A stretch of DNA of 64,000 bases from Bacilli bacterium (GCA_035361955.1 DAOSDC010000004.1:14916-78915); one strand, 5' to 3'. Counted from the stretch's first letter, positions 18,902-36,836 are shown. The notes: generated from the sequence alone by a model not told the origin. Numbers and translations are program-made.

Positions 18902-20548
18902 ATGAAAAAAAGAATTTTGATAAGTCTCGTGCTTGCCCCTATTCTTCTCGCCGGGCTTGCACTTAAGGACAACCCGCGAGTAACTGAACTTGATGCGGTA
19001 TATTCGCCTTATCAAATTCCTAATGGCGGATTCGAAAGCGGAAACCTCAATGGTTGGACGTCATTTCGCATTTGGAAAAATGAAAGTGGTATGGCTGCTT
19101 TCGATAGTTCATTGGTAACAAATGGAACATATTTTTCCAGTTATCCTTATGGCCGCGACGGCAGTTACAACCTTGGAATTACAAGTGGGTCGATTACTTG
19201 GGATCAAACATCTGAAAGAATGGGCTACTTGCGTTCATCTGACTTTATCCTTGGTGGGTCTGGATGGATTAGTTTCAAACTTGGTGGCGGAAAACATCCA
19301 TCATTCGCTTATATGTCAGTTAGGCAAGTAAGTGATGATGTAGAGGTCGCGAGGTTCGCCAATCGTCATTTTAATGACACAGCGAAAGCAACAACGCAAT
19401 ACGGAAGCTCGATTACCAACGCTGAAGCTTTTTTATTCCAATACTATTTCGATTTGTCATCGGTAGTTAGTCTAAGTACAAATTTATATATTTTACTTTG
19501 CGACACGTCCGCTTATGATTGGTCGATATTATCGGCGGATAGTTTTGTGACCTATATTGCTTCAGCACCCAGCCCGAGTGCTGATCAAACAGCAGTTAAC
19601 ATTTTGCCAACCATCTCTGGAATTGATACTGCTGATAACACAATAAAAAACGGATATTTCTCATCAGATTTTAGTAGTTGGGATTTGTCAAACGATTCCG
19701 CCAATGGCTGGGGCAGGAAAGACAGCGCCGCAAAAAGCAATAATTCTGGCGGAGATGGAGCAATTGGTATCCTGAGATCAAGCGCGTTTTTGGTAACCAC
19801 AAACAAATACATTCGTTTCGATTGGGCCGGCGGGCTTAGATACGACAAGCAAATTTTCATTTCAGTTAAGGAAACCGGCACCAATATCGAAAAATTACGA
19901 TTTGTGCGTCGTGACAATTTAAGTTCGAAAGAATCAGAAAGTTACGATAATCATATGCTAAATCTTTCATCCCTTTCCAGTGAAAAAATGTATTATTTGG
20001 AATTCGCTGATGGTCGTAGCGGTGGTTGGGGCATCTCTTATGTCGATGCAATTAGGACGGTTCCTGAATCTGAATGGAACAGTGTTACTTCTGGGGATCG
20101 AGCCGTTTCCATATCCAACTTGCCACTATCTTTCCCAGTATCTTATATTCAAGAAGCCGCATCATATGGAGCGTATTTTATTGAACAAACGGCAGAGGAT
20201 TGTGCCAATCTTGAAGGAGATGAGGTTCCATGGACAACTCTTGCCACTGAATACGGAACATTGTCTAACGATGCCAAAGATTATTTCGTTAATAGTGAAA
20301 CAACTGAAGCCAACGTTGTCGCCGCTCGAGATAGATATGTGTTCTTATACAACAAGTATGGTTCTTCGATGGAATGGGAGTATTTCCTCAAGAGTTCAAC
20401 TGGGGTCAATTACAGTCCAGCCCAATCAATGAACGAACCACGCGTTCCCCTTGTTAATGATGAACTAGCCTATGTCTTGTTAGTGGGAGGCGCCATATTC
20501 ATGATTGCCTCGGCAGCTTATATTGTCTTCCGAAAAAGATATAACTAG
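18902..20548 (+). CDS. Surface protein with a signal peptide, two tandem CBM4/9/22-like jelly-roll modules (tandem-module family member 1) and a C-terminal TM anchor (…LLVGGAIFMIASAAYIVFRKRYN)
   Basis: RBS TAGGAGAA. Module 1 starts NGGFESGNLNGW and carries LRSSDFILGGSGWISFKLGGG. Module 2 starts KNGYFSSDFSSW and carries ILRSSAFLV...IRFDWAGG. The C-terminal anchor is hydrophobic plus basic, with no LPXTG. Confidence 0.75.
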   Translation: MKKRILISLVLAPILLAGLALKDNPRVTELDAVYSPYQIPNGGFESGNLNGWTSFRIWKNESGMAAFDSSLVTNGTYFSSYPYGRDGSYNLGITSGSITWDQTSERMGYLRSSDFILGGSGWISFKLGGGKHPSFAYMSVRQVSDDVEVARFANRHFNDTAKATTQYGSSITNAEAFLFQYYFDLSSVVSLSTNLYILLCDTSAYDWSILSADSFVTYIASAPSPSADQTAVNILPTISGIDTADNTIKNGYFSSDFSSWDLSNDSANGWGRKDSAAKSNNSGGDGAIGILRSSAFLVTTNKYIRFDWAGGLRYDKQIFISVKETGTNIEKLRFVRRDNLSSKESESYDNHMLNLSSLSSEKMYYLEFADGRSGGWGISYVDAIRTVPESEWNSVTSGDRAVSISNLPLSFPVSYIQEAASYGAYFIEQTAEDCANLEGDEVPWTTLATEYGTLSNDAKDYFVNSETTEANVVAARDRYVFLYNKYGSSMEWEYFLKSSTGVNYSPAQSMNEPRVPLVNDELAYVLLVGGAIFMIASAAYIVFRKRYN

Positions 20549-20590
20549 CGTTTATAACTGAAAAGTCGATTTCATCGTGAAATAGTTTAA

Positions 20591-20617
20591 AGCCGTAAAC
20601 TAAATTACGGCTTTTTC
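20591..20617 (+). terminator. Rho-independent terminator (agccgtaa/ttacggct, then TTTTT)
   Basis: The 8-bp stem, 6-nt loop and T-run are seen directly. Confidence 0.7.
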
Positions 20618-35306: not shown

Positions 35307-35324
35307 ACACGTCAGGCTCCTTTA

Positions 35325-36836
35325 TTAGTAATTCAAATTAATAGCCATCGTCGCATAGGTGAAAAACGGACGAGTGGCGTAATAGGTAACAATGTTATCG
35401 ATGAAAATCGTATCCCAACTGCCGGTGGCGTTATCGACGATTTCAACATAAAACTTTTGGCCCTGATAATCCGATAAATCAATGAAGTATTGAATCATTG
35501 TTGTACCAGATGACCGATTATTGGCAAAGCGAATCACTTCGCGATTAGTGGCAAAGTGTTTAATGGAAACGAACGTGTCTTTGTCATAACGTGAGCCTTG
35601 CGCGGCCCCGATTTGAAGCGAGGCGATTCCTGAGCCATCGACGCGGAATAGCGACGAGCGAATCAATCCACGGGCGCTATCACCAGTAGCATTACTACGA
35701 AGCGACCCGGAGGTCACGATAAACGTATCGCTATTTCCATCTGGTTTTTGCCAACCAGGCAGATCTGATATCGTCCAGTTTGTCAAATTGGAAGTAAAGT
35801 CACCATTGGCAACTTGATTCGGGGCATAGTCAACCAAATAGATTGGCTTGATGTCAACGGCAATCACACCATCTTCAGGCGCTGTTTCATAATATGTCTC
35901 AAACGCGTCAGCGGTCAGGAAATCCCAATCTCGTGATCCGAAATCAGATAGCTCAATATATAGTTCGTTTCCTAAATACGATGATAAATCGGCCCGGTAT
36001 TTAACAAGGTTTTCACCAAAGTATTGACCCTCGACAACTTGTGAAACATCAAACATTTGATTACCAAATCGTTTAATTTCCAAATCATCACTGGCGCGTC
36101 GAATCGATACATATGACAAATCGGCGGTCTTGCCCGCGCCTAACAAAAACGAGATGTGACCACTACCCCCAAGGGTGAATGTTGATGAACGAAGTTGGCC
36201 GAGTCGTTCTTCAAACGCCGCTTTGGATACAGAAGTTGATCGACCCAACACATAGGAACCTTCACCATCATATGGAAATGTTGCGCTTGGGATTGTTTCA
36301 TTGGCGACGATGGCGGTATCTCGAAACGCTTGAATCGTCGTTTCGCCTTTGAAAATCGTGTGGACCGACCAACCGAATAAATCGCCGGTTTCAAATCCGC
36401 GATTGACGATGCGATGGGCATTGTGACGGTCGATGATTGTCATTGGTAATATCGCCCGACCCAATGTCGTATAAAGCGACAACTCATATGTTCCCGGAAG
36501 TAGCGTGACTAAATAATGTCTCGCAATCGAAATCGAAGTTGGACCAATTTCGTAGTCGCCAGAAGCGATATTGTGTCCTTCGATATGGGAAATCGTGCCA
36601 ATCTCCAGGGCGTCGTATTCATAGCTCAAATCGTTTAATAAATCAAAATCGAATTCGGTAACGAGCGGTGTAATCGGAAGCAGTGTTTCAGATGAGATGG
36701 ATGAGAAAATGTTTGTCGAGGATTCACTGCTTGAACCGGTTGACAAAGATGATTGGTCGCTCATTGAAGAGACGCATCCAGTCATGATTGTCATCAATGC
36801 GATTAATAGCGTAATACTCGACTTCGACACCTTCAT
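35325..36836 (-). CDS. Surface lipoprotein with an Ig-like domain and two tandem jelly-roll modules only (family member 5). No catalytic domain.
   Basis: Lipobox IMTGCV. The Ig-like region is homologous to that of 20695..23457. NRGFETGDLFGW...LRSSTFTLGGSGHISFLLGAG and a second module VANGDFTSNLTNW...LIRSSLFRV. Confidence 0.7.
   Translation of the reverse strand: MKVSKSSITLLIALMTIMTGCVSSMSDQSSLSTGSSSESSTNIFSSISSETLLPITPLVTEFDFDLLNDLSYEYDALEIGTISHIEGHNIASGDYEIGPTSISIARHYLVTLLPGTYELSLYTTLGRAILPMTIIDRHNAHRIVNRGFETGDLFGWSVHTIFKGETTIQAFRDTAIVANETIPSATFPYDGEGSYVLGRSTSVSKAAFEERLGQLRSSTFTLGGSGHISFLLGAGKTADLSYVSIRRASDDLEIKRFGNQMFDVSQVVEGQYFGENLVKYRADLSSYLGNELYIELSDFGSRDWDFLTADAFETYYETAPEDGVIAVDIKPIYLVDYAPNQVANGDFTSNLTNWTISDLPGWQKPDGNSDTFIVTSGSLRSNATGDSARGLIRSSLFRVDGSGIASLQIGAAQGSRYDKDTFVSIKHFATNREVIRFANNRSSGTTMIQYFIDLSDYQGQKFYVEIVDNATGSWDTIFIDNIVTYYATRPFFTYATMAINLNY

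Follow-up and report, generated by a model that had tools for sequence, protein, structure and literature searches.

What five surface proteins built on a shared, duplicated module are doing among genes of mannoside metabolism is the question raised by a stretch of 64,000 nucleotides from a Bacilli bacterium (GCA_035361955.1 DAOSDC010000004.1:14916-78915), referred to here at its full length as the window. Positions 18902-36836 hold eight large open reading frames (ORFs), five of which (p1 to p5) encode products with a common region of about 350 residues. A first-pass annotation of the same sequence described these five as tandem pairs of a jelly-roll-like module and offered them as candidates for a new family, either of carbohydrate-binding modules (CBMs) or of catalytic domains. 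They prove instead to be clear homologues of repeats annotated as CAZy family CBM38. They do not form a new family but a divergent, re-contextualised branch of CBM38, and what is new is a membrane-anchored heteropair of modules A and B, fused to a glycoside hydrolase (GH) of family GH125 or to a phosphoesterase, or standing alone, in a mannoside locus of wall-less Bacilli. The pairs are probably non-catalytic CBM38-family units retargeted to a mannose-containing glycan, serving as membrane-anchored glycan binders and as targeting modules for the GH125 enzyme and the phosphoesterase.

All-against-all BLASTP of the five proteins aligns the common region at 28-48% identity (E 1e-25 to 1e-168) and returns out-of-register matches between its first and second halves (E 1e-10 to 1e-17). 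When the ten modules are cut apart, most A-versus-B pairs score E 1e-4 to 1e-20, so that the internal duplication is real and well above chance; the tandem duplication proposed at first pass holds, and the ten copies align as one family. Ten positions of this alignment are invariant (N5, W16, G74, S78, F81, G94, E114, R117, Y162 and D167), and the motifs noticed earlier are found in it (NGGFETGDLxGW, LRSSxFxLGGSGWISFKLGGG and KQIFxSVKE). The proposed module size of about 170-190 residues is about right for module A (164-188 residues) but too large for module B (142-149 residues). Module A is the canonical form, while module B is a shorter derived copy typical of the subgroup with the A-B arrangement, termed AB type below.

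Pfam and NCBIfam scans give no significant match for the modules of any of the five proteins, and phmmer of the p3 module pair against all Protein Data Bank (PDB) sequences gives no real match. A ten-module profile, searched against PDB sequences with hmmsearch, finds only the porphyran-binding 8xmz, through the opening strand motif NGDFETGxLxGW (E 0.034), and a spurious MgtE. The best Pfam score for CBM_4_9 is 14.8 bits against a gathering cut-off of 25.9 (E 0.038) and is confined to the N-terminal motif of p4; CBM_4_9 is unmatched in p1, p2, p3 and p5 in the same scan. The resemblance of the opening to CBM4/9/22 is thus real but shallow. Against CBM4/9/16/22/61/70-type jelly-rolls and 8xmz, identity is 13-16% and no Pfam family reaches threshold, and the central LRSSxF...GGSGxISFxLGG segment sets the CBM38 group apart. 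It is because Pfam, NCBIfam and PDB sequences are silent that neither the first-pass annotation nor the depositors, who entered the proteins as "hypothetical protein", found anything familiar.

The jelly-roll-like fold is borne out by prediction. An AlphaFold2 model of the p3 pair, made with 56 homologues, has a mean predicted local distance difference test (pLDDT) score of 92.5 and a predicted template-modelling (TM) score of 0.92, and consists of two beta-sandwiches packed as one unit. Structural neighbours, among them MAM domains, reelin repeats and toxin receptor-binding domains, are only 13-16% identical. Foldseek matches include the surface glycan-binding protein (SGBP) SGBP-B of Bacteroides thetaiotaomicron (7kwb). 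With the two-domain model, most matches are unrelated two-domain proteins (reelin repeats, Cry/Vip3 toxins and GH101), which were rejected as relatives, as their TM scores of 0.2-0.3 reflect a generic tandem-sandwich fold only.

The search led to CBM38 because GH32 was found among the partner domains of the wider family. A profile built solely from the ten window modules (the window-only profile) matches the repeats of the Bacillus (Niallia) circulans cycloinulo-oligosaccharide fructanotransferase (CFTase) at domain E 7e-35, 4e-37 and 4e-15 and those of the Paenibacillus polymyxa CFTase at 5e-36 and 5e-17, and a profile of A modules only reaches E 3e-41 against CFTase repeats. By BLASTP, A modules are 35-42% identical to these repeats over the full module (165-187 residues) and B modules 26-37%. 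The repeats matched lie at the N- and C-terminal ends of the enzymes, at positions 76-243, 261-392 and 1169-1326 of the 1333-residue P. polymyxa CFTase (P0322), and every CFTase module is A-like. In the alignment, the CFTase repeats bear NPGFETGDLTGW, GVLRSSTFELGGSGWISFKLGG and YIEIVDHATSDWG, the motifs that the first-pass annotation had listed. Both CFTases are confirmed by accession: the B. circulans protein P0283 is BAA24360/O52973, and AAL82574/Q8RLU3 is a member of the P. polymyxa P0322 cluster.

Published annotation places such repeats in CBM38. The dbCAN layout of a Defluviitalea enzyme is CBM38(44-189)+CBM38(221-367)+CBM38(409-527)+GH32(808-1121)+CBM38(1313-1448) (PMC7355431). A homologous GH32 protein, P0123, which is 61% identical to both the B. 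circulans and the P. polymyxa CFTases, has its modules at 39-206, 223-390, 406-558 and 1331-1493, and these positions coincide with that layout. P0123 was rejected as the Defluviitalea raffinosedens protein of the literature itself, since it comes from another assembly (GCA_900175155.1, not WSLF) and the tie is by architecture only. According to a second paper, CBM38 (formerly X39) corresponds to residues 32-389 of the Paenibacillus macerans CFTase, a stretch made up of two beta-sandwich domains that has low micromolar affinity for inulin and levan (PMC10076258, citing Lee et al. 2004). If, as we infer, the P. macerans and P. polymyxa CFTases have a common residue numbering, the interval 32-389 in the latter contains a strong module (76-243) followed by a shorter, divergent one (261-392). 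The founding P. macerans sequence, AAG47946.1, is not among the 15 listed of the 80 members of the P. polymyxa CFTase cluster. Because the window modules are homologous to CFTase repeats that published annotation places in CBM38, they are by homology CBM38-type, and their tandem arrangement also has precedent.

The likeness to the CFTase CBM38 of P. macerans, P. polymyxa and B. circulans extends over several features. NxGFETGDLxGW, LRSSxFxLGGSGWISFKLGG and YxxxxDxxxxxWG are common to both; similarity is to the non-catalytic repeats of GH32 CFTases, the founding members of the family; the fold, predicted for the window pair, is a beta-sandwich with a two-domain unit in which the second sandwich is shorter and more divergent; and multiple copies occur on extracellular Bacillota enzymes. 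Attachment to GH32, which is typical of CBM38 and not strictly defining, is absent: the window pair never stands beside GH32, and where it does not occur alone its fusion partner is GH125 or a purple-acid-type phosphoesterase. Unlike CFTases, which are secreted or anchored by SLH domains, the window proteins attach to the membrane through a lipobox or through a transmembrane helix at the C-terminus, and they have a distinct conserved B-type second module (KQIFxSVKE) and a mannoside locus. CBM66, represented by the levan-binding module of Bacillus subtilis SacC, is the other known fructan-binding module and likewise a beta-sandwich CBM on Bacillota GH32 enzymes. It was raised as an identity by the GH32 link and rejected, as SacC CBM66 is absent from the profile matches to PDB sequences.

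The highly significant homology to catalogued CFTase repeats largely refutes the proposal of a CBM or catalytic family unrelated to known ones, which is now barely credible. The silence of Pfam, NCBIfam and PDB sequences speaks for novelty, as do best structural neighbours of only 14-16% identity and the invariant acidic and basic residues E114, R117 and D167. The modules nevertheless behave like CBMs (145-190 residues, 2-10 copies per protein, unrelated catalytic partners), and N5, E9 and D167 are located in the first and last strands. Such positions in the CBM4/9/22-type fold usually form a structural Ca2+ site. A catalytic role, suggested by the invariant Glu, Arg and Asp, was rejected in view of the size of the modules, the number of copies per protein, the variety of their partners and their homology to binding modules. 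The family matched is catalogued in CAZy but is not itself well characterised: the literature found contains one binding study, from 2004, Pfam has no model for CBM38, and sequence searches detect no solved structure.

All five proteins are extracytoplasmic and membrane-tethered, and the openings predicted at first pass, a signal peptide or a lipobox, can be read from each sequence. Two stand-alone A-B proteins have a plain signal peptide, modules A and B, a predicted helical region of about 120 residues and a C-terminal transmembrane anchor with a basic tail. The first, p1 (18902..20548, plus strand; 548 residues), is identical to NCBI protein P0014 and carries module A at 19010..19567 (residues 37-222) and the shorter derived module B at 19637..20071 (residues 246-390). 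The second, p3 (26415..28052, minus strand; 545 residues), has module A at 27399..27962 and module B at 26877..27302. An automatic ORF listing extends p3 to an ATG at 28067, a codon that overlaps the GGGAG ribosome-binding site lying 8 nucleotides upstream of the ATG at 28052. The 545-residue form is the likely product because of this overlap and because the form starting at 28052 matches the deposited NCBI protein (P0001, 100% identity). With this better start for p3, the five ORFs are all present where the first-pass annotation had put them.

The helical region between module B and the anchor (20072-20545, plus strand, in p1; 26418-26876, minus strand, in p3) is also present in most AB-type homologues. 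Its consensus is F..T...C....G....W......Y.......K..F...........A..R.......Y, with conserved Cys, Trp, Tyr and Arg, and a Pfam scan gives no match for it at E <= 1.

The remaining three are lipoproteins, with lipoboxes IVSC (p2), LSAC (p4) and MTGC (p5) each followed by a Ser-rich linker. In p4 (32757..35306, minus strand; 849 residues), module A (34614..35105, residues 68-231) and module B (34113..34544, residues 255-398) precede a GH125 catalytic domain (32802..33986, residues 441-835; Pfam PF06824, E 1.7e-112). In p2 (20695..23457, plus strand; 920 residues), module A (21205..21756, residues 171-354) and module B (21826..22254, residues 378-520) are followed at 22387..23208 by a purple-acid-phosphatase-like N domain (Pur_ac_phosph_N, residues 565-645; PF16656, E 1.8e-4 / 3.9e-6) and a calcineurin-like metallophosphoesterase (residues 652-838; PF00149, E 4.1e-13). 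Both C-terminal fusions described at first pass are thereby borne out. The third lipoprotein, p5 (35325..36836, minus strand; 503 residues), has module A at 35880..36416 (residues 141-319) and module B at 35373..35819 (residues 340-488), and its sequence ends after module B. Pfam and NCBIfam scans find no catalytic domain in p1, p3 or p5. An additional X2-like domain of about 90 residues precedes module A in both p2 and p5. In p2 (about 95 residues, 20917..21204) it matches CBM_X2 weakly (E 0.04) and is probably Ig-like and X2-related; homologues bear CBM_X2.

Beyond the window, an exhaustive search with the window-only profile returns 1249 cluster representatives, and for 254 the E value is 1e-30 or lower. 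Many members are 1000-3900 residues long with 2-10 module copies each. Pfam partners in 32 scanned proteins include CBM_X2 (15), the N and C domains of GH32 (8), Laminin_G_3 (8), Metallophos with Pur_ac_phosph_N (6) and GH125 (1), together with Big_9, Cadherin_5, SLH and CWB2. The module thus recurs as a portable, CBM-type jelly-roll recognition unit, used alone or fused to differing enzymes, much as the first-pass annotation had supposed. Its statement that the pair is always A-then-B is correct for close relatives (57 of 107 matches) but not for distant members, which have AA, AAA or up to ten A-like copies. Stand-alone AA, AAA and AAAA relatives occur in fructan loci that are under a LacI regulator and contain an ABC importer and two or three GH32 genes, a parallel deployment of the module as a free binder. 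Such enzyme-free proteins of 2-4 A-like modules lie directly after GH32 genes in other uncultured bacteria (L005 10001-11878, L008 10001-11365 and L014 10001-12523), a position which suggests that in the fructan loci of Gram-positive bacteria CBM38 proteins without an enzyme bind fructan at the surface. Three giant members (P0110, 3900 residues; P0115, 3220 residues; P0109, 1520 residues) carry 6-10 copies at a regular spacing of about 450 residues, so that there the module sits within a larger repeating unit.

The window itself encodes a mannoside-utilisation system. Upstream of p1, at 15221..18758 on the plus strand, phosphomannomutase (PMM), mannose-6-phosphate isomerase (PMI) and a ROK kinase form a mannose-phosphate funnel. 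Between the module genes, at 28098..32829 on the minus strand, lie genes for a Glug-repeat lipoprotein (28098-30245) and a surface protein with two F5/8C domains and GH130 (30256-32829). Downstream, at 36833..41965 on the minus strand, follow a GH130-like DUF1861 protein, two ABC permeases, a solute-binding protein and an intracellular GH130. The locus also contains a LacI regulator, and domain scans of the window proteins find GH32 nowhere in the 64 kb.

The same division appears elsewhere. A scan of one genome per species yielded 78 loci, whose neighbourhoods were read to 10 kb on either side, with GH125, GH130, DUF1861, PMM, PMI or similar counted as mannoside markers. The 35 AB-type loci, from Izemoplasmatales, Acholeplasmatales, "Tenericutes" and Bacilli metagenome-assembled genomes (MAGs), have proteins 31-59% identical to the query pair; none contains GH32 and 30 contain a mannoside marker. 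In the 43 loci of GH32-linked type, from Paenibacillus, Cohnella, Neobacillus and Clostridia (about 30% identity to the query pair), GH32 is present in all and a mannoside marker in none. Among the AB-type loci, GH125 occurs in 18, GH130 or DUF1861 in 23, PMM or PMI in 6 and a phosphoesterase in 9, and three of the five marker-free loci are on short contigs (3.5-10.9 kb). A recurrent order in other MAGs is DUF1861, p5-like, GH125 fusion, F5/8C-GH130, Glug and p3-like. One AB protein is encoded between a LacI-type regulator gene (with a periplasmic-binding domain) and PMM, with GH130 and DUF1861 close by, and one phosphoesterase fusion adjoins GH125 and DUF1861. The A-B pair is co-conserved with mannoside-processing genes and portable across catalytic partners. 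The split shows re-deployment at the level of lineages rather than 78 independent events. A search of the literature for CBM38 in combination with GH125 returned nothing but genome inventories.

This distribution bears directly on whether the pairs keep the ancestral specificity of CBM38, binding inulin or levan so as to sense or hold fructan beside mannoside enzymes. The sole experimentally characterised CBM38 binds inulin and levan (PMC10076258), and the A modules retain 35-42% identity to CFTase repeats. Beyond the GH125 fusions, the nearest relative of p4 module A is a GH32-linked module (42% identity, against 35% for its window paralogues), from which it also follows that the window's five paralogues did not arise by recent expansion in place. 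The JGI name of the AB-type homologue P0037 is "fructan beta-fructosidase". Retention of fructan binding is possible but fits the neighbourhood poorly, and we consider it unlikely: GH32 is missing from all 35 AB-type loci as well as from the window, the pair is fused to GH125 and lies beside GH130, PMM and PMI, and 35-42% identity is low enough for a change of specificity within a CBM family. Such shifts within a family are established for CBM6, CBM32 and CBM35.

Synteny also speaks to another reading, in which the pair is a structural stalk or an adhesin for host or neighbour surfaces or for polymers of the cell's own envelope, such as a phospho-glycan remodelled by the fused phosphoesterase. 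The structural neighbours include domains of protein and cell-surface recognition (MAM domains, reelin repeats, toxin receptor-binding domains), many giant multi-repeat surface members combine the module with cadherin-like, Big_9, SLH or CWB2 domains and have no catalytic domain, and divergence among the five paralogues of this one locus is strong (28-48% identity). Against such a role stand the tight synteny with GH125, GH130, the ABC importer and mannose-phosphate enzymes across many genomes, the relatives in LacI-regulated fructan loci, and the proven binding of polysaccharide by one family member (PMC10076258). An adhesin or stalk is accordingly improbable.

The preferred account, capture of a mannose-containing glycan, would work as follows. 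Each protein displays a rigid tandem of two beta-jelly-roll modules outside the membrane, held by lipid in p2, p4 and p5 and by a C-terminal transmembrane helix in p1 and p3. The pair would be non-catalytic and would capture polysaccharides or oligosaccharides outside the cell. In an uncultured, small-genome, Mollicutes-like lineage of Bacilli it would have passed from systems for fructan to a locus for mannoside utilisation, and because of this move its ligand is most likely mannose-containing. The GH125 exo-alpha-1,6-mannosidase, the GH130/DUF1861 beta-mannoside phosphorylases and the funnel from mannose-1-phosphate to fructose-6-phosphate point to the same kind of ligand, which might be an alpha-1,6- or beta-mannoside glycan, possibly phosphorylated. 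In p4 the pair would hold the GH125 enzyme on its substrate and in p2 likewise the purple-acid-type phosphoesterase, the fused copies raising the local substrate concentration for both. That a phosphoesterase is fused to the pair suggests that the glycan is phosphorylated, as fungal phosphomannan is. The pairs standing alone in p1, p3 and p5 would be surface glycan-binding proteins supplying the importer. Together the proteins would feed the neighbouring GH130 at the surface, the ABC importer, the phosphorylases of the cytoplasm (GH130 and DUF1861) and the funnel formed by PMM, PMI and the kinase.

The comparison with SGBPs follows from this arrangement. Like the SusE/F-like proteins of Bacteroides and the CBM-only surface proteins of Gram-positive gut bacteria, the window proteins are membrane-tethered tandem beta-sandwiches, and they are encoded in a glycan-utilisation locus beside surface glycosidases and an importer. 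Their signal peptides, lipoboxes and anchors place them at the surface, synteny places them within a glycan locus with which they are co-conserved, and p1, p3 and p5 have no catalytic domain, which are the features that define the SGBP class. They differ from SGBPs in having no homology to SusD/E/F, in being associated with an ABC importer rather than SusC/D, in belonging to a monoderm or wall-less organism and in having a role read from context. Of the SusD/SGBP role suggested at first pass, an SGBP-like function is plausible for the stand-alone copies.

Several points weigh against the preferred account. The argument for a mannose-containing ligand proceeds from gene neighbourhood and fusion partners, and the one characterised CBM38 binds fructans (PMC10076258). 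The loci compared are not phylogenetically independent, and the split of 0/35 against 43/43 for GH32 is largely one between two lineages. The CBM38 assignment, made from homology, runs indirectly through the CFTases and two published annotations. GH76, GH92, GH38 and GH99 are not recognisable in the locus, which leaves the target substrate uncertain, and several large proteins of the locus belong to no recognisable family.

A more specific proposal is about evenly balanced between being right and wrong. Within CBM38, the A-B pair would form a subfamily tied to mannoside loci, and its specificity, for instance for alpha-1,6-mannan, beta-mannoside or phosphomannan, would be the family's first for a glycan other than fructan. 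Its stand-alone, membrane-anchored forms would be the functional counterparts of the SGBPs of Bacteroidota in wall-less, small-genome Bacilli (Izemoplasmatales/Acholeplasmatales-like MAGs), and the phosphoesterase fusion would imply extracellular dephosphorylation of a phospho-glycan.

The CBM38-type identity accounts for a group of genes that had no annotation, within a mannoside locus conserved in uncultured Mollicutes-like Bacilli, and provides a case of a CBM family changing its polysaccharide context, from fructan to mannoside. Hundreds of surface proteins are annotated as "hypothetical protein" because CBM38, among the least studied of CBM families, has neither a Pfam model nor a structure that sequence searches can detect. 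The system may indicate how monoderm or wall-less bacteria that lack SusC/D tether glycans at their surface. In practical terms, it yields modules that are candidates for binding mannan or phosphomannan, together with a predicted model of high confidence for a family lacking a structure. A non-fructan specificity, if true, would be the first in CBM38.

Among the other genes of the locus, 23494-26382 (minus strand) encodes a 962-residue surface protein with a signal peptide, a C-terminal Ser-rich linker and a transmembrane anchor, unmatched in Pfam, NCBIfam and PDB sequences. Its AlphaFold2 model (pLDDT 85.4) has an N-terminal (alpha/alpha)6-like helical barrel at about residues 30-500, followed by beta-sandwich domains. 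Foldseek finds only generic (alpha/alpha)6 glycosidases (GH9 xanthanase, GH15 and GH78) at low TM scores, and E128, E315, E450 and D469 are its invariant acidic residues. On the strength of the model, the protein is a candidate for an uncharacterised glycoside hydrolase family, and its novelty may exceed that of the CBM38-type modules. The model points to no specific family and does not settle the substrate of the locus.

The GTG-start ORF at 30256-32829, encoding the protein with two F5/8C domains and GH130, shares 73 nucleotides (32757-32829) with the 3' end of the gene for the GH125 fusion. Its true start is probably a downstream ATG, that of MKQTMKWFGLL..., which opens a signal peptide.

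Upstream of the GH130 and ABC-transporter genes, beside the LacI regulator, 41970-45959 (minus strand) encodes proteins of 646 residues (matching Big_2 only) and 682 residues (no Pfam or PDB match), a pair conserved in another genome (L001 4611-8553). At the start of the window, 809-5729 (plus strand) holds two adjacent paralogues of about 820 residues, each with GH43 and a C-terminal 3-keto-disaccharide-hydrolase/DUF1080-like domain. These are followed on the opposite strand, at 5840-7768, by two paralogues of class-II fructose-bisphosphate aldolase.

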